Of a stretch of 64,000 nucleotides of DNA, positions 5,765 to 56,944 are shown piece after piece. This DNA comes from Chloroflexota bacterium (GTDB lineage: Bacteria > Chloroflexota > Anaerolineae > Anaerolineales > UBA11579). The position numbers and the translations under genes were made by a program. The stretch's first letter is position 1, and every line of letters starts with the position of its first letter. A model generated the notes under the pieces. The model worked only from the letters and a program-made list of their open reading frames with translations. It was not told the origin of the DNA and searched no databases. The stretch spans positions 722 through 64,721 of the forward strand of contig QWJF01000007.1 in the NCBI GenBank assembly GCA_009391835.1, read 5' to 3'.

Positions 5765-7246
5765 ATGTGGTCCCTAACTGTCCGTTCCCCGGATAGCAAA
5801 CCCAACGAGTACCTCCTCAAGCCCGGAGCGAACAACCTTGGCCGTCGTAAAGGCAACGATATCGTCATTGCCGACGAGGCCGCTTCGCGCCTCCACGCCC
5901 AACTCCATCTAGACGATAAAACCAATTCCATAACGATTCGCGATCTGGGCAGCCGCAACGGCACTTTCATCAATCGCCGCCGTCTCACAGCAAAGCACGA
6001 TTTCCGGCTGGCGCCAAATGATGTGGTGCGCATCGGCATGTACGAAATTCTGCTCTCCATCCGCGAGGAACCCGGCGAAGAAGCCGAACTTGATGCTTCG
6101 GGATTCCAACCATTCAGCCGCGAGCTGCTTCTAGAATCATTTGATAACCATGCGGTGCTGCTCTATGAAGTCATCCAGCAACTCAACAACGTGCTGGATG
6201 TCGATGTCGCTCTCAAGGAGGTTTCGCGCCTCTTGCGCCTTACGCTAGGCGCCGACAAATGCAGGGTCATTCTGGCCGAAGATTTCAACCGTATCATGGA
6301 GCTCGGCTTTCCTACCAGCATCGCAGATTTCGCCATCGAGAACCGCACCACCGTGCTACTGCCCAGCCGCGGACCCGAAAGCAAGCAATTAATGAGTGAA
6401 AGCGCGCGCACATTGCGTGTCCATACGGTTTTGTGTGTGCCCGTGGTCAGCGCCGATAAGGTCATCGCCTTGATCTACATGTACAAAACTCGATCCGATA
6501 CGCGCCATTTCAGCCGTCGCGATATGCAGCTTGCTGTGGCCGTAGGTCATCTTGCTGCCCTAACCATTGAGCGCGTCTCCCTGATTGAGCGTGTTCGTGA
6601 AGAACAACGCGTTCGTCAGTTACTCCAGCGCTTCGTCGCTCCCACGGAGGCCGAGTTCCTGCTGCGCACCTATCTCGATAGCGGGAGCCTGCCGGTGCTT
6701 CAAGAGTTGCAATGCACGGTAATGTTTGCCGACATCGCCCAATCCAGCCGCCTGGCGGAGAGTCTCGGCCCGCGTCCCTTTGGAGAGCTGCTTAACCGTT
6801 ATTTCCAGGATGTCACCAACATCATCTTCCAATATGGCGGCCTAATTGATAAATACCTCGGCGATGGTTTCATGGCCGTCTTCGGCATGTCTGGGAAGCA
6901 AAAAAATCCCGAACAGAACGCGGTGGCAGCCGGATTGGAGATCATTAAACTCCTCGAGGCCCGCTACCGAGAACCGGATAAACATATCGTTATAGGCATC
7001 GGCATCAACACGGGCATGGTCGTGGCAGGCTATGTGAGCACCAAAGAGCGCGTGGAACTCTCGGTACTGGGAGATGCAGTTAACGTGGCCGCCGGCCTCG
7101 AAAGTATGGCCCGCCCCAATCGCATTTTGCTCGGCCCTCTAACCACAGACGCGGTGAAAGATAGCTACTCCCTTGAGCTTCTTGGGGAACAAACTATCAA
7201 GGGCCGCACGCAACCTCTATTGGTTCACGAAGTCAAGTCCCGGTGA
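5765..7246 (+). CDS. FHA - GAF - class III adenylate/guanylate cyclase
   Basis: FHA motifs (LGRRKGNDIVIADEAASRLHAQL, RDLGSRNGTFIN), a central GAF-like region, and a cyclase core (VMFADIAQSSRL, KYLGDGFMAVFG, GINTGMVVAG). Confidence 0.85.
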   Translation: MWSLTVRSPDSKPNEYLLKPGANNLGRRKGNDIVIADEAASRLHAQLHLDDKTNSITIRDLGSRNGTFINRRRLTAKHDFRLAPNDVVRIGMYEILLSIREEPGEEAELDASGFQPFSRELLLESFDNHAVLLYEVIQQLNNVLDVDVALKEVSRLLRLTLGADKCRVILAEDFNRIMELGFPTSIADFAIENRTTVLLPSRGPESKQLMSESARTLRVHTVLCVPVVSADKVIALIYMYKTRSDTRHFSRRDMQLAVAVGHLAALTIERVSLIERVREEQRVRQLLQRFVAPTEAEFLLRTYLDSGSLPVLQELQCTVMFADIAQSSRLAESLGPRPFGELLNRYFQDVTNIIFQYGGLIDKYLGDGFMAVFGMSGKQKNPEQNAVAAGLEIIKLLEARYREPDKHIVIGIGINTGMVVAGYVSTKERVELSVLGDAVNVAAGLESMARPNRILLGPLTTDAVKDSYSLELLGEQTIKGRTQPLLVHEVKSR

Positions 7247-10186: not shown

Positions 10187-11014
10187 TCACACCACCTGCC
10201 AGTTTCGCTCGAGGCGTCGTAGTAGCCCTAGAAATAACGCGGAAACCCCCAGCAGCAATACCGAAAGCCCCACGGCAACACCGCGATTATTTTCCAGGCC
10301 AATATAAATCGCCAATGGCATCGTCTGTGTGCGCCCCACCAAGTTCCCCGCAAAAATGATGGTTGCTCCAAATTCGCCCAGCGCCCGCGCCCAACACAAC
10401 AGCGCCCCGCCCAACAGCGCCTGGGACGCTGCCGGGATCATCACATAGCGAAACAGTTGCCACTGATTCGCCCCCTCGGTGGTCGCAGCCTCCTCTAGCT
10501 GGCGATTGACCGCGCCAAAACCAATGCGCGCCGCCCGCACGAAAAGCGGCCCTGCGACAAATAATTGGGCCAGCACTACGGCTGCTGCTGTGAACGGCAG
10601 GTGGATGCCCAGCAATTCCAACGAACCCCCTACCAATCCCCTGCGACCGAATGCCAGCAACAAGCCCAGCCCAGCCACTGAGGGTGGCAGAACAATTGGC
10701 AGGTCCACGAGGATCTCCACCCAGCCTTTGCCCCTGAACGGAACCCGGGCTAACACATAGGCCAGTGGTGTGCCCGTCAAAATAGCTGCCGCGGTGCTCA
10801 CCGAGGTGGTGGCTAGGCTCACCCGCAACGCGGTGAGCGCCTGCGCATCCATCAGTGTTCCGGGCAAACTGGCCGCAAGCCCTTCGACCACCAGCGCCAG
10901 CACAGGCAGCCCCAGTAGCAGGGTGAGCAGCAGCCCCGGCGCGACCAACCATCCCACCGAAACACTACGCGTATCTTTGCGCGTCATCGAATTTGCTTCC
11001 ATAATCTCGGGCAC
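10187..11014 (-). CDS. modB: molybdate-type ABC transporter permease
   Basis: Strong similarity by eye to E. coli ModB (LPIVLPPSVAGLGLLLAFGRRG, ARALGEFGATIIFAGN). Ends 1 nt before the trmB start. No modA or modC is adjacent. Confidence 0.8.
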   Translation of the reverse strand: MPEIMEANSMTRKDTRSVSVGWLVAPGLLLTLLLGLPVLALVVEGLAASLPGTLMDAQALTALRVSLATTSVSTAAAILTGTPLAYVLARVPFRGKGWVEILVDLPIVLPPSVAGLGLLLAFGRRGLVGGSLELLGIHLPFTAAAVVLAQLFVAGPLFVRAARIGFGAVNRQLEEAATTEGANQWQLFRYVMIPAASQALLGGALLCWARALGEFGATIIFAGNLVGRTQTMPLAIYIGLENNRGVAVGLSVLLLGVSALFLGLLRRLERNWQVV

Positions 11015-11085: not shown

Positions 11086-13146
11086 ATGCCACGCTCCGAC
11101 ACTCCCTCCATCAAGTACCTCCGCCTCCAAACCTGGGCAGAACAGCGCCACGCCTGGCTCATGCCCATTGCTCTCTTAACTGTCTGTATTTTGGCGTATG
11201 GGCTTCTGATCCCCTGGCTGGGTTTTTATTGGGACGATTGGCCCAAAGCTCTTTTCGCCGAAACGATTGGCCCAGGCGCCTTCGTCCGCTTTGCGGCGCA
11301 TCGTCCAATCAATGGTTGGTGGTACATCCTTTCCCTGTCCCTGTTAGGCACCTCACCGCTGCGCTGGCAGCTCTATGCTCTCTTCTGGCGCTGGGCCAGC
11401 GCAGTGGCCTTCTGGCTCTTCCTGCGTGCTCTCTGGCCTCGTCGGCGCTGGCTTGTTTCTGCAGCCGCGCTGCTTTTCGCTGTTTACCCCGGTTTCCGCC
11501 AAACCAACATTGCCCTCTCGTATTACATCCATTTCCTTGCGCTGACTAGCTTTTTCCTTTCCCTGGCCTTAATGTTGGCTTCCATGCGCCCATCGAATAC
11601 TGCCCGTTGGCAGAATGTTGCCGCATTCCTGCTTGCCGTGCTCACCATGCTGACCACAGATTACTACTACGGCCTCGAACTCATCCGCCCCGTGCTGCTC
11701 TATTTGGCTCTGAAACCCGCCAGCCAAACGTCCCGAGAGCGCCTGCGCCGCACTCTCAGGCTATGGGCGCCCTACCTGCTCCTCACCACAATCATGTTCG
11801 TTTGGCGCCTCAGTTTGGAGGCGCCCGAATCCTACGCCTCGGGCCTGACGGAAACGCTGGGCAATGTGAGCGGCTTCAGCACGGTTCTCAGTTCGGCCCT
11901 CGGCGATCTGTTTCAAGGCGCGCTCTCTGCTTGGTTGCAAACCATTACAGCGCTTGGCAATATCAATTGGGCCTCACGCGTCGAACTACTTGGCCTCCTA
12001 CTCACCCTGCTCAGTGCTGCGGCTGCCTACCTATTTCTTAGATTTGGTTTGCCCTCCCCTAAAGATGACGAGCCAACTGATGGCTCTCGCAGGCAGATTC
12101 TTGGGCTGGGTGGGTTGGCTCTGGTGGTCGCTAACCTCCCATTTTGGGCTTCGGGCTTGGCCATCGGCCTGAACTTTCCTGCCAACCGCCTAACACTGCC
12201 AATGGCCGCCGCTTCATCATTGCTCCTGGTTGGGTTCGCGCTTTTCCTGCGCGCCGGTTGGCCGCGCGCCCTGTTTATTGCCAGCCTGCTTGCCCTCGCT
12301 ATCGGGCTTCAGTTCCACACCGCCAATGCGATGCGCGAAGATGGTGAGCACCACGCCGATTTTTGGCAACAATTCATTTGGCGCGCCCCCACAATTGAGC
12401 CAGGCACGGCCATTCTGAGTGAGGAGCTGCCGCTTGAATTCTTCTCCGATGATTCGCTCACCGGTGCAGTAAACCTGATCTATCCTTCCCCCTTCCCAGA
12501 AAGCTCCCTGAACAACGCTATCCTCTACTTGGATTTGCGTCTGGGCAGCAAGCTGCCGAGTCTGGCTCCCGATCAGCGCATTTTTTGGGAGTACCGTCTG
12601 GTTACCTTCACGGGCAGCACGTCCCGGTCAATCATCATCTACTACGCGCCGCCCGCCTGTTTGCGCATCCTGGATCCCATCATTGATGCCAACAATCCCC
12701 TCCTAACCCCCGCTACTCGACAGGCGCTTCCACTCTCCCGTCCCGAATTGGCCGCTCAGGCTGCGGGCATCCCTGCCCAGGCTCCTGGCAATCTTCTTGA
12801 TGGCCGCGGGTCTGAATCGTCCTGGTGCTATTACTTTGAAAAAGCGGATTTGGCGCGCCAAAACGGGGATTGGGCACAAGTCGCCACCCTCGGGGATGTT
12901 GCTTTTTCCCTGGAGGATTCCCCAAATCACGCTTCGGAACGCGTGCCATTCATTGATGGCTATGCCCGCGTTGGGGACTATGACCGTGCCCTGGAGCTCA
13001 GCCTTGAGGCCATTGAAATCAATTCCCGCATGAGTGCGATGCTATGTGATACGTGGCGCCGCATTTACGCCTCCACGCCCGAAAACGCGGATAGAGTTTC
13101 TGTGCTGCAAGTTATTGAAAATAAATTGACCTGTAACCTAGATTAA
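11086..13146 (+). CDS. large polytopic membrane protein, putative GT-C type glycosyltransferase with soluble C-terminal domain
   Basis: 686 aa, about 12 TM helices, first-loop motif LGFYWDDWP, and a C-terminal helical (TPR-like) region. Confidence 0.6.
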   Translation: MPRSDTPSIKYLRLQTWAEQRHAWLMPIALLTVCILAYGLLIPWLGFYWDDWPKALFAETIGPGAFVRFAAHRPINGWWYILSLSLLGTSPLRWQLYALFWRWASAVAFWLFLRALWPRRRWLVSAAALLFAVYPGFRQTNIALSYYIHFLALTSFFLSLALMLASMRPSNTARWQNVAAFLLAVLTMLTTDYYYGLELIRPVLLYLALKPASQTSRERLRRTLRLWAPYLLLTTIMFVWRLSLEAPESYASGLTETLGNVSGFSTVLSSALGDLFQGALSAWLQTITALGNINWASRVELLGLLLTLLSAAAAYLFLRFGLPSPKDDEPTDGSRRQILGLGGLALVVANLPFWASGLAIGLNFPANRLTLPMAAASSLLLVGFALFLRAGWPRALFIASLLALAIGLQFHTANAMREDGEHHADFWQQFIWRAPTIEPGTAILSEELPLEFFSDDSLTGAVNLIYPSPFPESSLNNAILYLDLRLGSKLPSLAPDQRIFWEYRLVTFTGSTSRSIIIYYAPPACLRILDPIIDANNPLLTPATRQALPLSRPELAAQAAGIPAQAPGNLLDGRGSESSWCYYFEKADLARQNGDWAQVATLGDVAFSLEDSPNHASERVPFIDGYARVGDYDRALELSLEAIEINSRMSAMLCDTWRRIYASTPENADRVSVLQVIENKLTCNLD

Positions 13147-44417: not shown

Positions 44418-45218
44418 ATGAAAACGCCTTTTGGTCGCTTGGAAGCCCGCCTCCAACACTTTATCGAAGAAGGCACCGCCCGTCTTTTTTCCACCCAGGA
44501 TTTAAAAAGCGAGCTCACTTCCCGCCTGGCCGAAAGCATGCATGCCCAGGTGCATTTCGACGCCGATGGACAGTTGGTTGCGCCTGGCACCTACACCATC
44601 GACGTTAGCAGCCGCCTCGCGGCCACTCTCAAATCCAATCAGAGCCTTGTATCCTCTCTACAAGCTGCCCTACTCAGCGCCGCGTCAGACGCCAAAATTC
44701 ATCTTGATAGCGAGCCCATACTCCACATTGCCCCCAACGATGAACTCGCCCAGGGAGAATTCCGCGTGCACAGTACCGTTGTGGGCCAAAGCTTAGCTGT
44801 AACACAATCGCTTGAAGCCCAGCCAAAAGTGCAAGAGGTTCAAACCCCAGCCGGCGCTTTTCTCATCGTCAATGGTACAGAAATATTTCCCCTCAATCTC
44901 CCCATTATTAATATCGGCCGCAAAAGCGATAACCACCTCGCCATTGATGATTCACACATCTCACGCCGCCACGCGCAATTGCGCGCCATCGACGGGCACT
45001 ATCATTTCTTCGATCTCGGCTCCACGGGTGGTTCAAACATTAACGGCCAGTCCTCGCGCAGTGCAATCCTTCTCCCCGGCGACGTAATCCATTTGGCGGG
45101 TGTGCCCTTAATTTACGGCCAGGATCGCGCCACACCACAGGAAGAAACACAAGAATTGGCTGTCGCTCCTCAAAATAAAAACAATCGCACCCGCGCCAGC
45201 ACCAAACCCACCCCCTGA
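44418..45218 (+). CDS. fhaA: FhaA-like protein (DUF3662 N-domain + C-terminal FHA)
   Basis: MKTPFGRLEARLQHFIEEGTARLFS (DUF3662 pattern). FHA motifs INIGRKSDNHLAIDDSHISRRHAQL..DLGSTGGSNING. Confidence 0.8.
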   Translation: MKTPFGRLEARLQHFIEEGTARLFSTQDLKSELTSRLAESMHAQVHFDADGQLVAPGTYTIDVSSRLAATLKSNQSLVSSLQAALLSAASDAKIHLDSEPILHIAPNDELAQGEFRVHSTVVGQSLAVTQSLEAQPKVQEVQTPAGAFLIVNGTEIFPLNLPIINIGRKSDNHLAIDDSHISRRHAQLRAIDGHYHFFDLGSTGGSNINGQSSRSAILLPGDVIHLAGVPLIYGQDRATPQEETQELAVAPQNKNNRTRASTKPTP

Positions 45219-45227
45219 CCAATCAGC

Positions 45228-45665
45228 ATGAACGACATTGCGGCTTATCTTTTGCTGGCCCTTCGCCTGCTGATGGCGCTTGCCCTGTTTGCTTTTCTGG
45301 GCTGGGCGCTGCACACCATGTGGCGCGATCTAAAGGCCCAGGCCCAGCAAGATAGTTCGGCCCAGGCGCCGCCTATTCACCTCACCCCCCAAGGTGAAGG
45401 CACCGAGCCGCTACGCTTCACCGTCCCTGAGATCACTGTTGGCCGCCATCCAGCTTGCGAATGGCTGCTGGACCATGAAACCATCTCCTCTCGCCACGCC
45501 CGCCTCAGCTTTCATAACAAAAACTGGTGGCTCGAAGACCTCGCCTCTCGCAACGGCACTTACTTGAACGAAGAAATCATCACAGAAGCTGTCGTGCTGG
45601 CCAATCAAGATGTCATTCGCTGTGGTGAGGCCGCCTTTAGAATTTCCCTGGAGTCTCAATCCTGA
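45228..45665 (+). CDS. fhaB: FhaB-like protein (N-terminal TM helix + FHA)
   Basis: TM helix LLLALRLLMALALFAFLGWAL. FHA motifs ITVGRHPACEWLLDHETISSRHARL..DLASRNGTYLN. Confidence 0.8.
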   Translation: MNDIAAYLLLALRLLMALALFAFLGWALHTMWRDLKAQAQQDSSAQAPPIHLTPQGEGTEPLRFTVPEITVGRHPACEWLLDHETISSRHARLSFHNKNWWLEDLASRNGTYLNEEIITEAVVLANQDVIRCGEAAFRISLESQS

Positions 45666-45677
45666 TTGGAGCAAGCC

Positions 45678-46550
45678 ATGCCCGCCAACAGTGATGTTCC
45701 CCTGCTCGCCATTATCGGCGGCTCCGGCCTCTACAGCATGCCGGGCCTCGAAGATATCGAAGAGCAAACCATCTCTACGCCCTTCGGCGATCCCAGCTCC
45801 CCCGTTGTCCTGGGCTCCCTGGATGGCGTCCGCCTCGCCTTCCTCGCCCGCCACGGCCGCGGCCACACCATTACCCCCAGCGAAGTGAACTATCGCGCCA
45901 ACATCTGGGCCCTGAAGTCTCTCGGCGCGCGTTTCATCCTTGCTGTTAGCGCCTGTGGCTCCCTGCGCGAAGATTACGCCCCCGGGGATATCGTAATTCC
46001 CGATCAACTCTTCGATTTCACCCACGGGCGCGCCCGCTCTTTCTTTCAGGACGGTTTTGTGGTCCACGTCGGTGTCGCCGATCCCTTTTGCAAACCCTTC
46101 AGCGCCCAGCTGCACAATGCTTGTGAGCAGGTTGACGCAACTGTTCACGCCGGTGGTGGCTACATCACCATTGAAGGGCCCCGCTTTTCCACTCGCGCCG
46201 AATCTAACACCTATCGCTCTTGGGGCCTCTCCATTATCGGTATGACCAGTTCCCCGGAAGCATTTCTGGCTCGTGAAGCCGAGATGCATTATGCCGTCAT
46301 GGCCCATGTTACCGATTACGACGTTTGGTACCAGGAGCCTGTTAGTGTGGATATGGTCATCCGCACCATGCAAAAGAACACACAGCTCGCGCACCAGGCC
46401 ATTCATCGCCTGGCTGTGGAGTTGCAAACCGAGCAGGATTGCGGTTGTGAGCACGCCCTGGCGAACGCATTCATTACCGATTTTGAGCAAGCCCCTCCCG
46501 CCACGCTCAAGAAACTCGATCTGCTCATCCGCAATTACCGCAAAATATGA
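45678..46550 (+). CDS. mtnP: S-methyl-5'-thioadenosine phosphorylase
   Basis: LAIIGGSGLY, LARHGRGH, GDIVIPDQ and MTSSPEAFLAREAEMHYA are typical of MTAP. GGAG lies 6 nt before ATG 45678. The stop overlaps the next start (ATGA). Confidence 0.85.
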   Translation: MPANSDVPLLAIIGGSGLYSMPGLEDIEEQTISTPFGDPSSPVVLGSLDGVRLAFLARHGRGHTITPSEVNYRANIWALKSLGARFILAVSACGSLREDYAPGDIVIPDQLFDFTHGRARSFFQDGFVVHVGVADPFCKPFSAQLHNACEQVDATVHAGGGYITIEGPRFSTRAESNTYRSWGLSIIGMTSSPEAFLAREAEMHYAVMAHVTDYDVWYQEPVSVDMVIRTMQKNTQLAHQAIHRLAVELQTEQDCGCEHALANAFITDFEQAPPATLKKLDLLIRNYRKI

Positions 46551-49180
46551 ACATGTCCCGGCCGCTTCGCTGGCTGCTGAGCGGCAGCCAGTCCGGGCGC
46601 CAGCTTCGCCTAGCTGCCGCCTTCCTGGCTTTTTTCGCCCTGGCCCTCACCCTCTCGCCGGCGGTGGGCAACCCGGAACCCATCGACCTGGGCGGCCTGC
46701 GCTGGTCGCATTGGATTGGCCTCGCCACCTGGTTGGCAGCCTTCTATTGGATGCAGCGCGCTGTTAGTCATGAACTGCCTGAGCACGACCGCTTGCTGCT
46801 GCCCCTCGCTGGCCTGCTCACCGGTTGGGGCCTGCTCACCGTCTGGCGACTTACTGTGCTCTTCGGCTTGCGCCAGGCGCTCTGGGTCCTGGTCTGCACG
46901 GCCCTAATCATCAGTCTGCTGCGCTACAAAAACCAGTTGCTCCCCCTGCTCCGTCGCTATAAATATCTTTGGCTGCTGGCTGGCTTTATCATCACCGCCC
47001 TCACATTTTTCTTCGGCACCAACCCCTCTGGCATCGGCCCCGATTTGTGGCTCGGTTGCTGCGGACTCTATTTCCAGCCCTCCGAGCCGCTCAAGTTACT
47101 TCTCATCATTTACCTCGCGGCCTACCTGGCCGACCGTCAGCCGCTGATGCGCGGCCTGGGTCCTTTGCTGGCCCCCACCTTCGTCATGAGCGGCCTCGCC
47201 CTGCTGCTTCTCCTTATCCAACGCGATCTTGGCACCGCCTGGGTATTCATCTTCATCTACACCGTCATGATCTATGCCGCCACTGGGGAGCGTCGCATTC
47301 TGCTGGCCAGCTTGCTGAGCATCATGCTCGCCCTTTTCTTTGGCTACGAATTTATCCCCTTGGTGCATGCCCGCATCGAGGCCTGGCTCAATCCCTGGTT
47401 GGACTCCAGCGGAGGTGCTTATCAAATCGTTCAGGGCATACTTGCAGTTGCCGCTGGTGGCCTCTTTGGCCGTGGCCCCGGCATGGGCAGCCCCGGCTTC
47501 GTCCCCGTCGCCCATACCGATTTTATCTACACCTCGGTCGTCGAGGAAAGCGGTCTACTGGGGGCCATCGGCCTCCTGTTGCTTATCGCCTTGATCAGCC
47601 TGCGCGCTCTGCGCATCGCCTTGCGCGCCCGAGATGCTTACCCACGTTACCTGGCCATCGGACTCAGCGCCTATTTGGCTTGCCAGGCACTGCTTATCAT
47701 TGGCGGCAATATCCGCCTCCTGCCACTTACCGGCGTAACCCTGCCATTTGTCTCTTACGGCGGCTCCTCACTGCTCACATCCTTTTTTGCCCTGCTGCTC
47801 TTGTTATTGATCAGTGACCAATCCGCAAGCCGCCACGCGCCGCCTCCCCGTGGCGGCCCAACGTTGACCATCACCGCAGGTTACCTCATCGCCTTTGGCC
47901 TCGCCGCCCTCGTAACTGGATGGTGGGGATTGCTGCGCGCCCCCGATCTGCTCACCCGCCCCGATAACGCTCGTCGCACCCAGAGTGAACTCGTCGTCCG
48001 CCGCGGCGACCTGCTCGATCGCAACGACCTCATCCTCAACACCACGCAGGGTCTGTCTGGCGAATACACCCGCAGCTACAACTACTCAGCGCTCAGTCCC
48101 CTCCTCGGCTATTCACACCCCTTGTTTGGCCAGGTCGGCCTGGAAGCCTCCCTCGACTCCATCCTGCGCGGCGAGGAATATCAGCCCGCCCTCACCCTTC
48201 TCATGGACGAGTTACTCTACGGCCAAACACCCGCCGGCTTAGATGTGCGTTTGAGTTTGGATGCATTGCTTCAATTACAGGCCACCAGCCTGCTTGGTGA
48301 TCAACCCGGGGCCGCCGTTGTATTGGATGCCATAACGGGCGATATCCTCGTCCTTGCTTCCACCCCCACCTATGATGCCAACAAGTTGGATGAGAATTGG
48401 GAAAGTCTCAGCGATACCGATTATTCCCCGCTGCTCAATCGCGCCATCCAGGCTGCCTATCCGCCCGGCCTCACCCTTGCCCCATTTATTTATACGGCTG
48501 CCCTGGGCCAGAGCATTTTGCCAGCCGCACCCGGCCCGCTCACCTACGAACTCGACAATGCCACCTTGGAGTGCCAGCGTCAGCCTGCCAACCCCGCCAA
48601 TTGGGCCGCGGTGATTGCCTCGGCCTGCCCCGGCCCCATTGCTGAGCTGGGCCTGACCCTCGGCAGTCAGGGGCTGATCAGTTTATATCGCGATTTGGAT
48701 TTCTATTCCCCCACGCCGCTGCGCCTTGAAGCCCACACCCCATCCGCCATAAGCATCGAGCGCCCCGGCCTGGCCGCTTTGGGCCGCTCAACCCTGCGTC
48801 TCAGCCCTCTGCAAATTGCTCTCGCCGCCGCAACACTTTCCAACTATGGAGAATTGCCCCCCGCCCATTTGGCGCTCGCCGTAGAGCAAAGCGATGGCCA
48901 ATGGCTCGAACTGGAACCCCTTACCGAATCTCGTGCGGTGCTCAATCGCGCCCTCACTGCCGCTACCGCTCAGGAATTGCGCAGCCCTTATCTGCCGCTA
49001 TGGCAATATGCGGCTCCCGGTGTTGGAGAGAACGGCGAAACAGTCACCTGGTATATGGCCGGATCAATGCCCGGCGGGACAAAAAACTATGTAGTTGTGA
49101 TTCTGCTGGAGCAGGACAATCCCATCCTCGCCAAATCCATCGGGCAACGCCTCTGGCTTGCAGCAATCAATCAGGAGTAA
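46547..49180 (+). CDS. fusion protein: SEDS (RodA/FtsW) peptidoglycan polymerase + class B PBP (PbpA-like) module with degenerate active-site motifs
   Basis: SEDS motifs QPSEPLK, HTDFIYTSVVEESG and LPFVSYGGSS. The PBP part aligns by eye with PbpA (GAAVVLDAITGDILVLASTPTYDAN, LLNRAIQAAYPPG). However, SxxK reads LTLA, SxN reads SAC and KTG reads PGV. Confidence 0.85.
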   Translation: MNMSRPLRWLLSGSQSGRQLRLAAAFLAFFALALTLSPAVGNPEPIDLGGLRWSHWIGLATWLAAFYWMQRAVSHELPEHDRLLLPLAGLLTGWGLLTVWRLTVLFGLRQALWVLVCTALIISLLRYKNQLLPLLRRYKYLWLLAGFIITALTFFFGTNPSGIGPDLWLGCCGLYFQPSEPLKLLLIIYLAAYLADRQPLMRGLGPLLAPTFVMSGLALLLLLIQRDLGTAWVFIFIYTVMIYAATGERRILLASLLSIMLALFFGYEFIPLVHARIEAWLNPWLDSSGGAYQIVQGILAVAAGGLFGRGPGMGSPGFVPVAHTDFIYTSVVEESGLLGAIGLLLLIALISLRALRIALRARDAYPRYLAIGLSAYLACQALLIIGGNIRLLPLTGVTLPFVSYGGSSLLTSFFALLLLLLISDQSASRHAPPPRGGPTLTITAGYLIAFGLAALVTGWWGLLRAPDLLTRPDNARRTQSELVVRRGDLLDRNDLILNTTQGLSGEYTRSYNYSALSPLLGYSHPLFGQVGLEASLDSILRGEEYQPALTLLMDELLYGQTPAGLDVRLSLDALLQLQATSLLGDQPGAAVVLDAITGDILVLASTPTYDANKLDENWESLSDTDYSPLLNRAIQAAYPPGLTLAPFIYTAALGQSILPAAPGPLTYELDNATLECQRQPANPANWAAVIASACPGPIAELGLTLGSQGLISLYRDLDFYSPTPLRLEAHTPSAISIERPGLAALGRSTLRLSPLQIALAAATLSNYGELPPAHLALAVEQSDGQWLELEPLTESRAVLNRALTAATAQELRSPYLPLWQYAAPGVGENGETVTWYMAGSMPGGTKNYVVVILLEQDNPILAKSIGQRLWLAAINQE

Positions 49181-49343: not shown

Positions 49344-50558
49344 CTACGCCTCCACGCGCACAAAACGCCGCTTCCCCACCTGCAGCACGCCCGGCCCCGG
49401 GAACGCCGCGTTCGCATCCTCCAGCGTTTCTCCATCCAAACGCACACCGTTTTGCTCAACTAGCCGCCGCGCTTCGCTTTTGCTTTTCACAAGCTTCGCC
49501 CCCACCAACACATCCAGAACGCTTTGTCCCGCATTGAGCGAATAGCTCGGCATCTCTTCCGGCATATCTCCTTGCTGAAAGACGCGCACGAAGGCCTCTC
49601 TCGCGTCCTCAGCAGCCTGCGCGTCGTAATAGAACGCCGTAATTTCCTCGGCGATCTGCATTTTGGCATCCCGTGGATGCAGCGCCCCGCTCTCTACATC
49701 TGCTTCCCGTTTGGCGATTTCACTCGACGTCCAGCGCGTAGCTAAACGCATATACTTGCCCATTGCCTTATCCGGCACGCTCATCACCTTGCCAAACATA
49801 TCGCTGGCATCCGTATTCAGCGGGATGTGATTGCCCAGCGATTTACTCATCTTGACTTCGCCGTCTGTGCCCGGCAGCAGCCCCAAAATGACGCCGATAT
49901 TCGGGCGATCGCCCAGCGCGCTCATCAGCTTACGCCCCGCGGTAACGATATTAAAAAGCTGATCCGTCCCCCCCACTTGCACATCCGCCTTCAAAATGTG
50001 CGCGTCGTAACCCTGCATGATCGAATAAAAGGTTTCATGCAAATAGACCGGATCGCCCTCATCCCAACGTTTGCGGAAATTCTCGCGCCTCATGAATTGT
50101 TGCACGGTGAAATTGGAGGCCAGGTGAATTAGGTCCCCAAAACTAAGCTCGGAAAGCCATTCGGAGTTGTATCGCACTTCAGTCTTCGTTTTATCCAGGA
50201 TTCGGAAAGCCTGCTCCGCGTAAGTCTTGGCATTCTCCGCCACCTCGTCTGCGCTCAGTTGCGGTCGCAATTTATCCTTATCTGAAGGATCCCCGATCAA
50301 CGACGTGTACGTCCCAATCATAAACACCACCTCATGGCCCATATCCTGGAATTGGCGCAGCTTGTTCATCGGAATCGTGTGCCCGATATGCAAGTCTGAA
50401 GTGCGCGGATCAAACCCAGCATACACCCGCAAGGGCCTGCCTACCTTTTCCGCCTTCGCAAGTCGCTCCAGAAGCTCGTCTTCCATCGCTTGCTTCAGGG
50501 TTTCGTCACCGTATTCCGTCCCCTGCATCAGCGTCGCCACTTGTTCTTCGATCTTCAT
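49344..50558 (-). CDS. tyrS: tyrosyl-tRNA synthetase
   Basis: HIGH (DLHIGHTIP), KMSKS (KMSKSLGN) and a C-terminal S4-like domain. GGAGG RBS. Confidence 0.92.
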   Translation of the reverse strand: MKIEEQVATLMQGTEYGDETLKQAMEDELLERLAKAEKVGRPLRVYAGFDPRTSDLHIGHTIPMNKLRQFQDMGHEVVFMIGTYTSLIGDPSDKDKLRPQLSADEVAENAKTYAEQAFRILDKTKTEVRYNSEWLSELSFGDLIHLASNFTVQQFMRRENFRKRWDEGDPVYLHETFYSIMQGYDAHILKADVQVGGTDQLFNIVTAGRKLMSALGDRPNIGVILGLLPGTDGEVKMSKSLGNHIPLNTDASDMFGKVMSVPDKAMGKYMRLATRWTSSEIAKREADVESGALHPRDAKMQIAEEITAFYYDAQAAEDAREAFVRVFQQGDMPEEMPSYSLNAGQSVLDVLVGAKLVKSKSEARRLVEQNGVRLDGETLEDANAAFPGPGVLQVGKRRFVRVEA

Positions 50559-50577
50559 CCGTCGTCCTCCACCGTGT

Positions 50578-50610
50578 TAAAACAAATGCGCCCTCGAGGC
50601 GAGGGCGCGC
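50578..50610 (-). promoter_or_regulatory. terminator-type hairpin inside the tyrS 5' leader (candidate attenuator)
   Basis: Minus strand: GCGCCCTCG-CCT-CGAGGGCGC followed by ATTTGTTTT, about 20 nt upstream of the SD. The neighbouring upstream gene is divergent, so this is not another gene's terminator. Confidence 0.55.
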
Positions 50611-50679
50611 ATAGCTCACCACAGGGTTTTAGTGGGCTTTTGCGTAATAAACATTTGCTTTTTGAATTTTCACGCTCAA

Positions 50680-50751
50680 ATTATAGCATGGGGTCTCGCT
50701 CGCCTCCCATAGTTCCCGTCCCCTTTGGGCGGCAAGTCCTTATGCTATAAT
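50680..50751. promoter_or_regulatory. divergent promoter pair formed by a 10-bp inverted repeat ATTATAGCAT ... ATGCTATAAT (extended -10, TGCTATAAT, on each strand)
   Basis: Arms at 50680-50689 (serving tyrS, minus strand) and 50742-50751 (serving the HNH gene, plus strand). Confidence 0.5.
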
Positions 50752-50788
50752 CGCCCCGTTCGAGCGAAAATCGACAAAGCGGCCAACT

Positions 50789-51304
50789 ATGCACAGTAGC
50801 CTACTGGAACCTGTCCTTGTCCTGAACGCAAACTTTGAACCCATGAACGTTTGCACGATTCGCCGTGCAATGGGCCTGATCTTTTCCGACAAGGCCTCGA
50901 TGCTCGTCAATGGCCGCGGCGAAGTCCACACCAGTTCAACATCCTTTCCCGCCCCCTCGGTGATCCGCTTGGATCGCATGATCAAGCGCCCCCGCCCTCA
51001 AATCAAGCTAAACAAGCAGGAAGTCTTCCGCCGGGATCGTCACACCTGCCAATATTGTGGATCCGCGGATGGCGAACTCACGCTGGACCACGTGGTCCCA
51101 AGGCACTTGGGCGGTTCCCATTCCTGGGATAATCTGGTGACCGCCTGCCGCACTTGCAACCACAAGAAAGGCGGGCGTACCGTCGAGAACGCCGGCATGC
51201 AACCACGCAACAGGCCCAGCGCTCCCTCCGCCTCCGCCAAATACATTTTTGGTCGTTATCTGAGTAACAATCAAGGCTGGGATACATACATCGAAGGCTG
51301 GTAA
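50789..51304 (+). CDS. HNH endonuclease family protein
   Basis: CQYCGS..LTLDHVVPRHLGGSHSWDNLVTACRTCNHKKG, which is the HNH/CxxC signature. Confidence 0.85.
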   Translation: MHSSLLEPVLVLNANFEPMNVCTIRRAMGLIFSDKASMLVNGRGEVHTSSTSFPAPSVIRLDRMIKRPRPQIKLNKQEVFRRDRHTCQYCGSADGELTLDHVVPRHLGGSHSWDNLVTACRTCNHKKGGRTVENAGMQPRNRPSAPSASAKYIFGRYLSNNQGWDTYIEGW

Positions 51305-51426
51305 AGCCCTTTTCTGTTACCCCCAGTTAGCATAAAACCTACATAAAACCAGAATTTCCACCAGCAATGGTGGTCTAAGGCTCACCCGAATCTCCCTTTT
51401 CCTTACCCACTCCCCCAGTTCGACAT

Positions 51427-52182
51427 CTAATCGAACTCAAACTCCATAAAATCCTCTGCCAACACCACCGGTCCATCAAAATTTCGGCTCGCCTCAGCCA
51501 CCAAATCCTGCGGATTCTTTAACCCCGTCGGATAGTGGATCAAATATAAGGCCTTCGCCTTGGCCTGTTTAGCCATCTCGCCCGCCTGCGCTGCCGAACT
51601 GTGCCCCTCCGATTCGCCCGACGCCTCATGCAGCAAAATATCCGCGCCCTGCGCCAACCAGGCCACGTTGGCCGTGGGTGCCGTGTCGCTGGTGTAGGCC
51701 ACCACCTTGCCCGAGCCCGGAAATTCAAAACGCAGCCCGATCGCCGGAACAAAATGGTTCACTGGGTAGCTAACGATCCGCAAATCCGGCGCTTCCAGCA
51801 CCAGGGTCATATTCTTGTTGCGCAGGCGCTTAATGTCAACCGGATATTCCTGCCAGCGCTCCCATTCAAACGCATCCAGGAGTTGCTCCATCAGGCGCAC
51901 CGTATGTTCCAACCCATATAAGTTGAGCTGGTCGTGCCGGCCCAACAACCACATATTCATCAGCAGCAAAGGCACGCCGGAAACATGGTCCGGGTGGAAG
52001 TGAGTCATGATGATGTCAGTGATCGAATTGGGTTCTACGCCAATACGGCGCAGCCGCATCACCGGGTTGCTGGCGCAATCAACCAAAACGCGCCGCGTCT
52101 TCCCAATGAGCAGCATATGGGTGTTATCGTGATTCTCGTCTGGAACGGAATCCGAAGTGCCCAAAATAATCAGCTTGGGCAT
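51427..52182 (-). CDS. MBL-fold metallo-hydrolase (RNase Z-like)
   Basis: THFHPDHVSG (HxHxDH) and downstream His/Asp ligand positions. Confidence 0.8.
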   Translation of the reverse strand: MPKLIILGTSDSVPDENHDNTHMLLIGKTRRVLVDCASNPVMRLRRIGVEPNSITDIIMTHFHPDHVSGVPLLLMNMWLLGRHDQLNLYGLEHTVRLMEQLLDAFEWERWQEYPVDIKRLRNKNMTLVLEAPDLRIVSYPVNHFVPAIGLRFEFPGSGKVVAYTSDTAPTANVAWLAQGADILLHEASGESEGHSSAAQAGEMAKQAKAKALYLIHYPTGLKNPQDLVAEASRNFDGPVVLAEDFMEFEFD

Positions 52183-52195
52183 AAGTCGACCTAAA

Positions 52196-53014
52196 CTAAC
52201 CCTTCGCCAGCTTGGTATTGCTCCGGTGGCGCAAAATCAAAGTTACCGCCGCAAAAACAAGCACGATCGCCATCAGTGTTTGATTGGCATTAAAGCCACC
52301 CACCTCGGACGCATCCAAGCGCAGGAAATCAAGCAGGATCCGGATCACTGGATAGCTGATCAGATAGATAAGAAAAAGGTCTCCGGATTTTAGCCTGTCG
52401 CTATATTTGCGCGCCAGCCACAGCAACAGAAACACGGTTCCCAGGCTCCAAAGCGCCTCGTAAAGAAAGATGGGATGGTAGGTAGCCTGATCCGCAAACT
52501 CAGGCAGCCGATTCTCGGGGGCTATCGTGATTGCCCAGGGCAGGTTGCTGGGTGCGCCGTATAGTTCCTGATTCACGAAATTACCCCAGCGCCCGATGGC
52601 CTGGCCCAAGGGCAGCGCCGGTGCGATCACATCCACCCAATCCAAAAAGTTCTGTTTGCGCCGCTTGGCCATCACATACAGAGCGAGCAATCCGCCCGCC
52701 ACGGCGCCGGGAATTCCCAGGCCTCCGTTCAGTAGATTGATGGCATCCAGCGGATGCGTCAGGTAATACTGCGTGGTGATTCCAACTGCCACCAGGGAAG
52801 GCGAAGGGGTCAGGATGTGCCAGATGCGCGCCCCCACCACGCCGCCGATCACCATCCAGAACAGGCTGTCCCACAGGAAATCGGTGTTCATTTTGTGCCG
52901 TGTCGCTTGGCGCTCAGCTAGATAAGCCGCAGCCAACACTCCAAGCATCAGAATAATGCCGTAAAAGCGTATGTAAAGCGGCCCCAGATGGATTCCAAAT
53001 TGATCGATAGACAT
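52196..53014 (-). CDS. lgt: prolipoprotein diacylglyceryl transferase
   Basis: IRFYGIILMLG, GGLGIPGAVAGG and IGRWGNFVNQELYG motifs. Confidence 0.9.
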   Translation of the reverse strand: MSIDQFGIHLGPLYIRFYGIILMLGVLAAAYLAERQATRHKMNTDFLWDSLFWMVIGGVVGARIWHILTPSPSLVAVGITTQYYLTHPLDAINLLNGGLGIPGAVAGGLLALYVMAKRRKQNFLDWVDVIAPALPLGQAIGRWGNFVNQELYGAPSNLPWAITIAPENRLPEFADQATYHPIFLYEALWSLGTVFLLLWLARKYSDRLKSGDLFLIYLISYPVIRILLDFLRLDASEVGGFNANQTLMAIVLVFAAVTLILRHRSNTKLAKG

Positions 53015-53022
53015 AATCTCTC

Positions 53023-53649
53023 CTAGTTCTTTCGCTGGCGATGGGCCTCTGCCCGAACGTGCCAGATACGCTGCAGGGCCGTCAGATTGGAACCCGCGGC
53101 AATGATGGCCACTCCAATAAAGGGGATGTTAAAGAGCAGCGCCGGACCAAGGATCAAAACCCGCTCGACTCGCGAGAACCATCCCACCTTGGCCTCCATC
53201 CCCAGACTCTGAGCCCGTGCCCGTGTATAAGAAACCAGCATGGAGCCGAACGCCGCCAAATAAACCGCCAGCGACCATCCACTGAGCGTGTGGCCCAGGC
53301 TGTACCAGAGCAGCCCGCCGTATACCACCAGCTCCGAATAGCGATCGGTGACTGAATCCACGAAGGCGCCAAAATCTTCGGATTCGCCTTTGAGCCGCGC
53401 CAGCGCCCCATCCAGCGCATCAATGGGCCCCATCAGCAAAATCAGGAACCCACCCCAACTGAATTCTCCCTGGGAAACCAGCCATGCTCCCACCGAGGTG
53501 CCCACCAGCCCGCTTACGGTGAGCATATTGGGCTGCACCCCCATCCGGTTCAGAAAGCTTGCGGTCGGCTCCAATACCCAGCGAAATGTGCTTCGCAGCC
53601 ATTCGGTAAATGTGGTGCGTTTCTTTCCTTGTTGCACGGTCTCAGCCAA
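53023..53649 (-). CDS. CDP-alcohol phosphatidyltransferase family protein (PIP-synthase-like)
   Basis: DALDGALAR...G.FVDSVTDRYSE matches the D-x2-DG-x2-AR...G-x3-D-x3-D signature. Confidence 0.8.
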   Translation of the reverse strand: MAETVQQGKKRTTFTEWLRSTFRWVLEPTASFLNRMGVQPNMLTVSGLVGTSVGAWLVSQGEFSWGGFLILLMGPIDALDGALARLKGESEDFGAFVDSVTDRYSELVVYGGLLWYSLGHTLSGWSLAVYLAAFGSMLVSYTRARAQSLGMEAKVGWFSRVERVLILGPALLFNIPFIGVAIIAAGSNLTALQRIWHVRAEAHRQRKN

Positions 53650-53736
53650 AAGGGATTCCTACCTTTCAAAAGAATGCCACCAACCCGGCGCTTGATGGCC
53701 AAAGCTTGGGTATGCTAACTCGCTGCCAGAGGGCTG

Positions 53737-55944
53737 TCAAGCGAGGCCCTCGTTCTCGTCTTCGGCGCCGTCCATGTCCATTGAGACTAACACCTCGCGC
53801 TCGCGTCCCCCGCCCTGCACCGGCCCCAGCACACCCATATCTTCCAATTCATCCACCAGCCGCGCCGCCCGTGGATAGCCAATCCGCAGCGCCCGTTGCA
53901 GGTGCGAGGCGCTCGATTTACCCGAACGCCTGATTTCCTCGATGGCTGATTCAACCAATTCGTCCCGGTCCGAGAGCACGGCATCGTTGCGGATCATCTC
54001 GTCCCACGGCGCTCGCGCCTCATCGTCGGTTTCCCAATTCGTCCGCCAATAGCGCACCACGTTTTCCACTTCCCGGTCTGTGATCAACACGCCCTGCGAG
54101 CGCAAGGGTGCCGCCGCCTCCGGGGACAAATACAGCATATCGCCCTTGCCCAGCAGCGCCTCAGCCCCCGTACTATCCAGAATAACCCGCGAATCCACGG
54201 CCGAAGCCACAGCAAACGAAATGCGTGCCGGGAAATTCGCCTTGATCAACCCCGTCACGACATCCGTGCTGGGCCGCTGCGTTGCTACCACCAGGTGAAT
54301 GCCCGTGGCTCGCGCCATCTGCGCCAGTCGCACCAGTGTGCTCTCCGTGTGGTCGGCTGCATTCATCATCAGGTCGGCCAGCTCGTCAATCAACACCACC
54401 AGACGCGGCATCTTGGCCTTATCTTGCCTTCGCTCTACTTTACGGTTGTAACTCTCAAGATCGCGGGCACGCACGCTTTCCAGTTCCTTATAGCGCCGCC
54501 CCATCTCTGCCACCAACCAACGCAGCACCGCCGTGATGCGCTCCAATTCAGTTTCCACCTTGCCCATCAAATGCGGTAACCCGTTAAAGCGCACCAGCTC
54601 CACCATCTTGGGGTCCAGCATGATCAACCTTAAATCCTCGGGACTGTTGTTCATCGCCAGGCAAACGGTAATCGCCGAAATCACCACCGATTTACCCGAT
54701 CCTGTAGTACCCGCAATCAATAAATGCGGCATCTTGGCCAGGTCCGCCGCCACCGGCACGCCGGAAACATCCCGCCCCAGCGCGATTCCCAATTTCGATT
54801 TCAATCGGTGGAAAATATCGCTTTCCAGAATCGGCCTCAGTCGCACCAAAGAAGCCCGCGTGTTGGGCACTTCCACGCCCACATAGGAGCGCCCCGGTAC
54901 GGGTGCCTGAATGCGCAAGCGCTGGGCGGATAGCGCCAGCGCCAGATCCCGCTGCAAAGCCGATATCTGCGACACGCGCACCTTCTGTCCCCGCTCATCG
55001 TCGCCGTTGCCCGGCTTCGGAATATAGCCTGGCTCCACCGCAAATTGCGTCACCGTCGGCCCCACCTTGTAACCCACCACTTTGGCCGGGATGCCAAATT
55101 CGGCCAGCGTGCGCTCCAATAGCCCCGCCGATTGGTTAATATGCCGTTCGTTGGGCCGGTAGCTCTCCTCGGCAGAAAGCAAATCAACGGGCGGTAAATC
55201 CGCTGAACGCGGTGGCGCCTTGGCCGCGGCCTGGTTGGCCTCCCCCGCCCCAAAATCAGCCAACGCTTGAGGGGGTCGCGCCCCTTTACGCCGCCCCTGC
55301 CCCTCGTCCTCGTCCGCTTCATCCCCCTCGCCCTCGAACGGCGAAACAGAGAGCACCTCTGAAACGCGCGCCGCCCGCTTATCGGATTGCTCATCCAGCC
55401 AGTCGCGCGCCCGACCCATTTGCGCCGCCGCCATCAAACCGCTCACCAGGAGCAGGCCCAGCAACACTGCCCCGCTCAATGTACTCGCCATCCACTCGGG
55501 CAGGATGCTGCCAAACAACAGCCTGAAAGCCTCTGCCAATCCCCAGCCCACTAGGCCACCGTCCAGGCCCGTTTCGGCCCGCTCCAGCGAATGCCCCCAG
55601 AGCAGACTAATTAGCCCCAAGCTGGCGAAGGCCGCCAATTCCAGCGCGATCACGCGTCCCCATGCCGATTGCGCCGCTTGCCGCTTATGCATCAGGAGCC
55701 GCCAACCGGCATAAGCCAGCCCACCCACCACCAGTACGCTGCCCCAGCCCAGCCAGCGCCGCCACAACCCCACCCAGGGAGATAGCCAGGCGCCCGTGCT
55801 CAGCCCGCTAAGTGCCAGGATCGTCAGCAGCGCCAGCGCCAGCAGAACCACGCCCGCGATCTCAGCCAAATAGTCGCTAAATAAACTGCGCAACTGGTCA
55901 AGCCGCGCCGGCTTCGGCTCGCTGGCTTTGGAAGATTTAGCCAT
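53737..55944 (-). CDS. ftsK: DNA translocase FtsK
   Basis: N-terminal TM helices, Walker A GTTGSGKS, VVLIDELADLM, and the C-terminal gamma winged helix (RIGYPRAARLVDELE). ATG 55944 overlaps the S1-gene stop (ATGGCTAA). Confidence 0.92.
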   Translation of the reverse strand: MAKSSKASEPKPARLDQLRSLFSDYLAEIAGVVLLALALLTILALSGLSTGAWLSPWVGLWRRWLGWGSVLVVGGLAYAGWRLLMHKRQAAQSAWGRVIALELAAFASLGLISLLWGHSLERAETGLDGGLVGWGLAEAFRLLFGSILPEWMASTLSGAVLLGLLLVSGLMAAAQMGRARDWLDEQSDKRAARVSEVLSVSPFEGEGDEADEDEGQGRRKGARPPQALADFGAGEANQAAAKAPPRSADLPPVDLLSAEESYRPNERHINQSAGLLERTLAEFGIPAKVVGYKVGPTVTQFAVEPGYIPKPGNGDDERGQKVRVSQISALQRDLALALSAQRLRIQAPVPGRSYVGVEVPNTRASLVRLRPILESDIFHRLKSKLGIALGRDVSGVPVAADLAKMPHLLIAGTTGSGKSVVISAITVCLAMNNSPEDLRLIMLDPKMVELVRFNGLPHLMGKVETELERITAVLRWLVAEMGRRYKELESVRARDLESYNRKVERRQDKAKMPRLVVLIDELADLMMNAADHTESTLVRLAQMARATGIHLVVATQRPSTDVVTGLIKANFPARISFAVASAVDSRVILDSTGAEALLGKGDMLYLSPEAAAPLRSQGVLITDREVENVVRYWRTNWETDDEARAPWDEMIRNDAVLSDRDELVESAIEEIRRSGKSSASHLQRALRIGYPRAARLVDELEDMGVLGPVQGGGREREVLVSMDMDGAEDENEGLA

Positions 55945-56944
55945 AGTCCTCAGGCGGGTCCAGCAATTGCGGCTCGGGTGCGTTCTCCTCGTTCCACGGC
56001 TCACCCAGCAATTGCAGGCTCAGGCGCTGCCGCTCCGGTTCTACCTGGATCACTCGCACCTGTACTTTCATCCCACTCTCAAGCACCAGCCGCGGGTCTA
56101 GCCGTTCGTGCAACCCCATTTGCGAAATATGGATCAGTCCCTCCAACCCATCCTCCACCCGTGCAAAGGCCCCAAAATGCACCACTTCAGTAATCTCCGC
56201 CTCGATCTCCTCGCCTGTGGGGTATTTGCTCTGCGCCGTCTGCCAGGGATTGGTCCCTGCTCGCTTCACACTCAGTGATACACGGCCGCGTTCGCTATCC
56301 ATATCCAGCACGACAACCTCAAGCTCGTCCCCCGCCTTGGCCACTTCTTTGGGGTGCCCCACCCGGCCCCACGAAAGTTCTGAGATGTGTACCAGCCCCT
56401 CCACACCGCCCAGATCAATAAACAATCCGAAGGCCGTCACGTTGGTAACCTTGCCTGACATTCGTTGCCCTTTCTCCAGGGTCTCCAGTAAGTTCTGTCG
56501 CGAACCGGGTTGGCTTTCCGCAGCCCGTTCGGAGAGCACTATCCGTCCCCGCTCTGGATCGCATTCGATCACTTTTAACTCGAGTTCCTCCCCCACGTAA
56601 TTCTCCAGGAAGGCATCCCCCTTGCCTCGTCCGCTCAGGTTATCCAGCAGATGGGAGCGCGGCACAAAGCCCTGGAATTCCTGGGCCCGCACCAGCAGCC
56701 CGCCCTGATTGAAGCCAATCACTTCGGCGTAGCAAACCGTTTCCTTTTCTTGCAGTTCTAGCACTCGCGTCCAGTCCACCCAATCCATCGACTGGCCTCC
56801 GCCGTCCTTGCCGCGTTTGGGTTTGCTCGGCCCGCCGCGGCCCCGTTTCGCCGGCCCTTTGTGCTCTTCGGCCATCAAGGATTGCCACCAACCATCTTGG
56901 TTGCCGCTGCTGTTAGTTTCCCAGGGGTATCGTCTTTTCTCCAT
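55937..56944 (-). CDS. protein with three S1 RNA-binding domains and basic N-terminal tail
   Basis: S1-type repeats (GKVTNVTAFGLFIDLGGVEGLVHISEL; AEITEVVHFGAFARVEDGLEGLIHISQM). ATG 56944 is preceded by AAAGGA and lies 32 nt inside the upstream gene. Confidence 0.8.
   Translation of the reverse strand: MEKRRYPWETNSSGNQDGWWQSLMAEEHKGPAKRGRGGPSKPKRGKDGGGQSMDWVDWTRVLELQEKETVCYAEVIGFNQGGLLVRAQEFQGFVPRSHLLDNLSGRGKGDAFLENYVGEELELKVIECDPERGRIVLSERAAESQPGSRQNLLETLEKGQRMSGKVTNVTAFGLFIDLGGVEGLVHISELSWGRVGHPKEVAKAGDELEVVVLDMDSERGRVSLSVKRAGTNPWQTAQSKYPTGEEIEAEITEVVHFGAFARVEDGLEGLIHISQMGLHERLDPRLVLESGMKVQVRVIQVEPERQRLSLQLLGEPWNEENAPEPQLLDPPEDYG

Follow-up and report, generated by a model that had tools for sequence, protein, structure and literature searches.

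We analyzed a window of 64,000 nucleotides from a Chloroflexota bacterium of the order Anaerolineales (contig QWJF01000007.1 of assembly GCA_009391835.1) and found that a single open reading frame (ORF) at window positions 46547..49180 (+) encodes a SEDS (RodA/FtsW) glycosyltransferase, a transmembrane (TM) helix, a PbpA-type pedestal and a catalytically dead transpeptidase-fold domain in one chain of 877 amino acids. Pairs of SEDS proteins with penicillin-binding proteins of class B (bPBPs) form the central cell-wall synthases in most bacteria, and beta-lactams target them; laboratory work suggests that the bPBP has two jobs in them, namely cross-linking and switching on the polymerase via its pedestal. 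By analogy with these pairs, we consider it probable that the fusion is a single-chain synthase of the RodA/PbpA type in which only the SEDS module is catalytic, the tethered partner serving as a non-catalytic activator or scaffold and cross-linking being left to other enzymes. The arrangement is ancestral to the class Anaerolineae, or at least pervasive there.

A preliminary description of this DNA had proposed one uninterrupted SEDS-PBP frame of 877 codons. The frame was recovered as described, with an ATG start, and all of the peptide blocks that had been quoted from it were present in the ORF. Pfam domains were found in the order FTSW_RODA_SPOVE (residues 105-426), PBP_dimer_2 (486-567) and Transpeptidase (588-810). 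An AlphaFold2 model of the full-length protein, built on 85 homologues, was confident (pLDDT 90.3, pTM 0.84) and had 11 TM helices in all plus a PbpA-like ectodomain, so that the SEDS helices, the extra TM helix, the pedestal and the penicillin-binding fold could all be recognized. All coordinates within the fusion refer to the forward (+) strand.

The SEDS domain (residues 105-426, 46859..47824) matched PF01098 with an E-value of 7.6e-65 and 219.7 bits (cut-off 26.4), covering profile positions 36-354 of 356. It aligned to the FtsW structures 8P1U and 8BH1 and to the RodA structure 6BAR with E-values of 1e-28 to 1e-32, and the QPSE..K, xDLG and HTDF motifs were all covered by these alignments. 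Residues E180 and K183 (QPSEPLK), D227 and D325 were invariant across the fusion family. The last of these, the invariant SEDS aspartate of HTDF (codon 47519..47521), was aligned with 'ahTDFvf' of the FtsW and RodA structures and was present in 117/117 homologues. This full-domain match with its intact catalytic region bears out the earlier view that the SEDS module is complete, and the most economical reading is that it would be an active glycan polymerase. NCBIfam scores were below the cut-offs for both FtsW (242 bits, cut-off 337.5) and RodA (203 bits, cut-off 336.7); the operon context of the fusion is RodA/PbpA-like.

The remainder of the protein has the architecture of a class B PBP, with an N-terminal TM anchor, a pedestal and a penicillin-binding fold. 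A linker of about 10 residues leads from TM10 of the SEDS module to the eleventh TM helix (residues 437-463, 47855..47935), the former N-terminal anchor of the bPBP, which was seen as a helix in the AlphaFold2 model and carries the invariant W459 and W460. The PbpA-type pedestal (residues 471-585, 47957..48301) shows the strongest conservation within the PBP half and was assigned by structural matches to PbpA and by PBP_dimer_2 (PF21922); the latter scored 25.4 bits on residues 486-567, below the cut-off of 27, while covering profile positions 1-83 of 83, and most homologues carry a precomputed PF21922 match. The transpeptidase-fold domain without catalytic residues (residues 586-877, 48302..49177) was identified by PF00905 (residues 588-810, E-value 1.1e-14, covering only profile positions 1-210 of 299) and by Foldseek, which gave TM-scores of 0.75-0.79 for the fusion model against 4MNR, 4JBF and 3UN7/3LO7, with M. 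tuberculosis PbpA among the best matches. By sequence, too, the C-terminal half aligned best to 4MNR and M. tuberculosis PbpA, and the group of 4MNR was the best match in the PDB by both sequence and structure (family profile against 4MNR, E-value 4.6e-42). We noted that 4MNR, 4JBF, 4N1X, 4QJG and 4RA7, from Eggerthella lenta and Atopobium parvulum, are titled 'peptidoglycan glycosyltransferase', a misleading name for what are PbpA-type PBP domains; what was crystallized in 4MNR, 4JBF and related entries is presumably, in each case, the PBP half of a Coriobacteriia SEDS::PbpA fusion.

All three transpeptidase motifs have been lost from this half. Directly after YPPG, codons 48470..48481 (CTC ACC CTT GCC, positions that had been given exactly in the preliminary description) encode L642-T-L-A645, and G-L-T-L-A falls under G-S-T-F-K both in the pairwise alignment to M. 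tuberculosis PbpA and in the profile alignment to 4MNR. The KTG block reads P824-G-V826 (49016..49024), as had been proposed, and the 4MNR profile alignment agreed. For the SxN block, the earlier reading S-A-C was reproduced by pairwise alignment, whereas the profile alignment to 4MNR shifted the register one residue rightward, to A693-C694-P695 (48623..48631; family consensus G-C-P); the Asn is absent either way. A motif check of the whole 877-residue sequence found neither S-x-x-K nor K-[TS]-G anywhere, and therefore an intact SxxK/SxN/KTG triad elsewhere in the domain, which had been named as a possible refutation, was ruled out. Only three lysines (613, 846 and 863) occur in the transpeptidase-like domain. 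Pairwise, profile and whole-sequence checks thus agreed with the claim that the Ser nucleophile and the catalytic Lys are missing. With no nucleophile Ser, no SxxK Lys and no SxN Asn, and with KTG missing as well, the PBP half should be impossible to acylate, and both covalent beta-lactam binding and D,D-transpeptidase activity are predicted to be absent.

The same loss was observed across a large family. In a search of 5.8 billion proteins, which returned thousands of matches, nearly all of the best 120 matches considered were 850-910 amino acids long and had the same architecture at 45-63% identity, and the few with a named source were from Anaerolineales or Chloroflexota metagenome-assembled genomes (MAGs). 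A genome scan with one genome per GTDB species yielded 80 loci (numbered with L below), and ORF extraction with family hidden Markov models (HMMs) revealed a single fused ORF in most Chloroflexota loci. Intact homologues were found in more than 70 Chloroflexota genomes of the class Anaerolineae. Carriers include the complete genome of an isolate, Leptolinea sp. HRD-7, as well as MAGs labelled Ardenticatenaceae, Brevefilum, Longilinea, Caldilineaceae and Thermoflexales. All three motifs were absent in every Chloroflexota member among the scanned loci. Among 342 family sequences, the Lys position of SxxK was never K (G in 163, A in 46, Q in 34, and others), and the former Ser position was hypervariable (T 101, A 54, S 49, G 34, P 34, L 19, and others). 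The KTG columns were variable too, with R, L, T, Q, V and others at the K position and mostly A at the T position. When 1.84 billion representatives were searched by phmmer, the PBP half matched 351 clusters (50% identity) at E <= 1e-30, and S..K was absent in all 149 that were examined of the best 150.

Fusion and catalytic death are independent. Five Chloroflexota genomes (L061, Aggregatilineales; L068; L069; L070; L079) have adjacent, unfused rodA and pbpA genes, with a PbpA that is equally degenerate. In every case rodA stops at TAG or TAA and the ATG or GTG of pbpA comes immediately after, in the same frame (junctions at L061 11213-11218, L068 11156-11161, L069 11156-11161, L070 11258-11263 and L079 11294-11299), and therefore one substitution interconverts the fused and split forms; the fusion would have arisen by loss of this directly abutting stop codon. 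The global search with the PBP half also returned about 35 complete, unfused dead PbpA representatives, of which the few with named sources belonged to Anaerolineae and Candidatus Promineifilaceae. Conversely, the Coriobacteriales proteins of L074, L075, L077, L078 and L080 are fused and keep GSTFK, together with SxN and KTG where the alignment extends to them. In a neighbor-joining tree of the SEDS domain these fusions grouped with unfused actinobacterial pairs, apart from the dead clade, and fusion therefore arose at least twice, independently. The occurrence of both unfused dead pairs and fused motif-intact proteins is against a single event that produced fusion and degeneration together, and fusion as the cause of degeneration was rejected, since unfused dead pairs exist.

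Conservation differed along the protein. Mean identity to the query was 67% in the SEDS domain, 53% in the pedestal and 41% in the transpeptidase-like domain. Among 73 Chloroflexota sequences, 32 of the 35 PBP-half positions that were at least 90% conserved lay within residues 460-641, and only 3/35 came after residue 641, where the catalytic serine used to be. Most of the conserved pedestal residues (N474, R486, G487, R509, G521, Y522, G528, E533, L540, G542, G564 and Q576) also occur in catalytically intact relatives; among those shared residues, N474, R486, G487, G521, L540, G542 and G564 are invariant. Within the dead clade, pairwise identity was 0.43 in the pedestal and 0.26 in the core after the Ser position; the corresponding values within active relatives (n=3) were 0.43 and 0.43. 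Besides, about 50 residues (query ~654-704) have been lost in frame in at least 18 species, including the ~806-amino-acid forms of L006, L010, L012, L015, L017, L018, L023-L029, L032, L037, L040 and L049. Larger losses or strong divergence in the dead domain were seen in L036, L038, L043, L044, L065, L067 and L073. This pattern is that of a domain freed of enzymatic constraint, with its N-terminal pedestal still under selection, and the concentration of conservation in the pedestal and its collapse after the former Ser fit a PBP half kept as activator or scaffold.

Could the locus instead be a pseudogene in decay, or two genes merged artificially by assembly or a frameshift? The truncated gene of L076 and the frameshifts in a few long-read MAG relatives (L035, L050) are of the kind that such an explanation would predict, yet uninterrupted ORFs of ~800-910 amino acids recur in dozens of independent assemblies and in the complete isolate genome, the SEDS domain and pedestal retain the identities given above, the operon context is conserved, and the family fills the 351 clusters recovered with the PBP half. 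With the intact ORF recurring across assemblies in a conserved operon, this explanation was rejected, and we attach practically no weight to it. Two findings named beforehand as able to overturn the pseudo-enzyme picture were likewise not encountered: the single frame recurs without a stop or frameshift between its halves, and close relatives, far from being motif-intact, are all equally degenerate. The fusion is under long-term selection and not decaying. In L035 (~12180-12290) and L050 (~10804-10885) the gene is split by single frameshifts; both are MAGs of one long-read project ('MFD' isolates), and the frameshifts are most likely sequencing errors rather than biology. An enzyme with another catalytic set, for example with C694 as a Cys nucleophile as in L,D-transpeptidases, would be very improbable. 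C694 (48626-48628) does sit in the former SxN site and is kept in 294/296 family sequences that have the segment, and both C694 and C676 (48572-48574) are invariant in the 85-sequence alignment. However, C694 always occurs with C676, and the two columns are both gapped in every deletion variant of the family alignments, which fits a structural pair; the segment is wholly absent in many family members; C694 stands without a conserved general base, whether His, Lys or another; and in the pairwise alignment M. tuberculosis PbpA has Cys at both corresponding places, one of them inside its S-C-N motif. The two residues probably form a structural disulfide inherited from an active ancestor. A search for literature on a disulfide in M. 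tuberculosis PbpA found no usable source, and for this reason we name C676/C694 a probable structural pair only.

The transpeptidase-like head could also have been repurposed, either as a non-covalent reader of the stem peptides of peptidoglycan or lipid II or as a dock for a trans-acting transpeptidase or regulator. In most lineages the domain has stayed in frame and folded, its structure was predicted with confidence, C676, W686, C694, P695, G746, Q756, G768, W819, W835 and E855 are invariant or nearly so among closer homologues, and interactions between bPBPs have been reported in C. difficile (PMC12516126). We nevertheless regard a new function of this kind as unlikely: so few positions beyond residue 641 are conserved across the Chloroflexota sequences, the former active-site positions are hypervariable, the Cys-pair segment has been deleted in at least 18 species and more in others, and the invariants that were retained are generic motifs of the bPBP fold. 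The activator or scaffold function that we prefer would work as follows. The C-terminal half would have descended from a PbpA of the actinobacterial type, of which the membrane helix, the pedestal and the penicillin-binding fold as a whole have been kept. By analogy with RodA-PBP2 and FtsW-FtsI, the TM helix and the pedestal, being tethered, may dock on the SEDS module and hold it in a polymerization-competent state, while the eroding head domain would serve as scaffold or spacer. Cross-linking of the glycan strands would then happen in trans, through a divisome bPBP, class A PBPs (aPBPs) or L,D-transpeptidases. Chloroflexi have been reported to keep dcw sub-clusters (PMC8871954), and divisome FtsW/FtsI are therefore a plausible source of transpeptidase activity. 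Several points weigh against this model. That the pedestal and TM helix dock in this way is assumed from homologues, and the contrast in rates between dead and active proteins is based on 3 active sequences only. Because the head domain has stayed in frame in most lineages, with C676, C694, W819, W835 and E855 invariant, it may do more than serve as a spacer. In an Anaerolineales MAG (L076 9836-11365), a gene with the usual fhaA-fhaB-MTAP order upstream appears to encode only the SEDS domain and the extra TM helix (510 amino acids), and no PBP-like sequence was found downstream of it. Either the entire PBP half has truly been lost there or the assembly is at fault; if the loss is real, the pedestal would be dispensable in that lineage. 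Also, HMMs built from the family alignment together with motif scans detected no second SEDS protein, other PBP or YkuD-type L,D-transpeptidase in the window and 1.39 Mb of flanks (81 related loci), and Pfam scans of 20 further window proteins gave no cell-wall synthase.

The closest known system is RodA-PbpA of M. tuberculosis (Rv0017c/Rv0016c). Similar to that pair, the pbpA part follows directly after the SEDS part, the PBP half is built like PbpA, with a pedestal of that type (its PBP_dimer_2 match lying just under the cut-off) and the same fold, and Cys residues occupy the same two places. In contrast, the two parts here form one polypeptide, from which SxxK, SxN and KTG have all been lost. 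It had been held in the preliminary description that SEDS proteins and bPBPs are usually encoded by separate genes; while the fusion reported here is real, such an architecture had already been published. A catalogue published in 2025 lists natural chimeras with a glycosyltransferase (GTase), a pedestal and a transpeptidase (TPase) under the name of putative 'bifunctional class B synthases', comprising 117 InterPro proteins, mainly from Actinomycetes, and one Coriobacteriales example (PMC12516126). That study contains no analysis of the active sites (PMC12516126). The Coriobacteriia and Actinomycetes SEDS::PbpA fusions share with ours the order GTase, TM helix, PBP-A pedestal and TPase fold, but the Coriobacteriia proteins keep GSTFK, SxN and KTG and belong to a separate SEDS clade with an independent fusion. 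Moreover, beta-lactams are bound in the PBP structures of Atopobium parvulum (4N1X, 4QJG, 4RA7 and others), unlike what is expected of the motif-less domain. Fusions engineered from RodA and PBP2 of E. coli and from SpoVE and SpoVD of B. subtilis were functional in vivo (PMC6207328); there, too, the SEDS C-terminus was joined to the N-terminal TM helix of the bPBP in a single chain, although these fusions are artificial, with a (GGGS)x3 linker and an active transpeptidase.

It has been reported that SEDS polymerases need a bPBP partner and that changes in the pedestal activate RodA (PMC6207328), and FtsW polymerase assays have used bPBP variants marked as catalytically inactive (10.1101/358663). 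In addition, loss of catalysis by the canonical bPBP is tolerated in B. subtilis and C. difficile given an alternative bPBP (PMC12516126), the cases described being PBP2B with PBP3 in B. subtilis and SpoVD with PBP3 in C. difficile (PMC12516126; PMC12713402). In those mutants, as proposed here, the bPBP is needed as a protein and not as an enzyme, and the alternative bPBP drives division. They are laboratory point mutants of enzymes that are otherwise active, however, whereas the loss described here is natural, affects all three motifs and is fixed across a bacterial class. In the literature on SEDS-bPBP fusions, pseudo-transpeptidases and the PBPs of Chloroflexi and Anaerolinea, we found no naturally dead bPBP partner described. 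What appears to be new is a large, clade-wide family with a pseudo-enzyme partner in both fused and split forms.

A broader proposal, which we put forward tentatively and with less confidence than the model for the single protein, is that in all sampled genomes of Anaerolineae the RodA/PbpA-type SEDS polymerase has been partnered by a pseudo-enzyme since early in the clade, so that polymerization has been permanently uncoupled from D,D-transpeptidation. If this is true, either cross-linking would take place in trans, with L,D-transpeptidases or aPBPs as possible agents, or the wall material would stay uncross-linked; nature would also have shown that what a bPBP is conserved for in a SEDS pair is an allosteric task, not an enzymatic one. 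The family would represent a natural separation of the two bPBP jobs, with catalysis long discarded and the pedestal kept under selection in fused and split proteins alike, and it offers a system in which SEDS activation can be studied without transpeptidase activity. A beta-lactam-insensitive elongation synthase is predicted, and the family also raises the question of how peptidoglycan is cross-linked in filamentous Anaerolineae. For these proteins, the labels 'Penicillin-binding transpeptidase domain-containing protein' and 'bifunctional class B synthase' would be functionally wrong.

A conserved fhaA-fhaB-MTAP-rodA::pbpA unit ends with the fusion. Its first gene, fhaA-like (44418..45218, +), encodes FhaA_N and FHA domains (Pfam E-values 6e-12 and 8.9e-14) and was found upstream of the SEDS gene in 51/80 related loci. 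It is followed by a fhaB/fipA-like gene (45228..45665, +) for an N-terminal TM segment and an FHA domain (Pfam E-value 5.1e-20), which scored 78.6 bits against NCBIfam FhaB_Rv0019c, below the cut-off of 125, and was present upstream in 59/80 loci. The third gene, mtnP (45666..46550, +), encodes S-methyl-5'-thioadenosine phosphorylase (MTAP; TIGR01694, 303.8 bits against a cut-off of 274.85). An MTAP gene occurred in 63 of the 80 loci, nearly always directly upstream of the SEDS gene and often translationally coupled to it; in the window, its stop codon overlaps the ATG of the fusion (ATGA, in ..AATATGAACATG..). A methionine-salvage enzyme is thus located in a cell-wall operon, in the slot held by the PP2C phosphatase PstP in actinobacterial relatives. 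This conserved, coupled gene could be part of a new regulatory input. The preliminary description had likened the locus to the actinobacterial fhaA-fhaB-pstP-rodA-pbpA-pknA-pknB operon. The likeness holds for fhaA and fhaB, which lie upstream in the same order, but PstP and PknA/B are absent from the local operon: MTAP takes the place of PstP, no PASTA kinase follows the fusion, and neither a PP2C phosphatase nor Ser/Thr kinases adjoin it at this locus, where MTAP lies upstream and tyrS downstream on the opposite strand. The active actinobacterial relatives in L071 and L074 have a PP2C gene in the MTAP slot and a PASTA kinase gene (PknB) after pbpA; in Anaerolineae neither of these two genes adjoins the unit.

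Downstream of the fusion, the window contains tyrS, an HNH endonuclease gene, an MBL-fold hydrolase gene, lgt, a CDP-alcohol phosphatidyltransferase gene and ftsK (49344-56004, -/+). This synteny from tyrS to ftsK is kept in about 20 related loci (L002, L009, L011, L020, L030, L045 and others), and the wider neighborhood is therefore stable across the order. Another FHA-based signalling protein, of 493 amino acids with an N-terminal FHA, a GAF and an adenylate/guanylate cyclase domain, is encoded elsewhere in the window (5765-7246, +).

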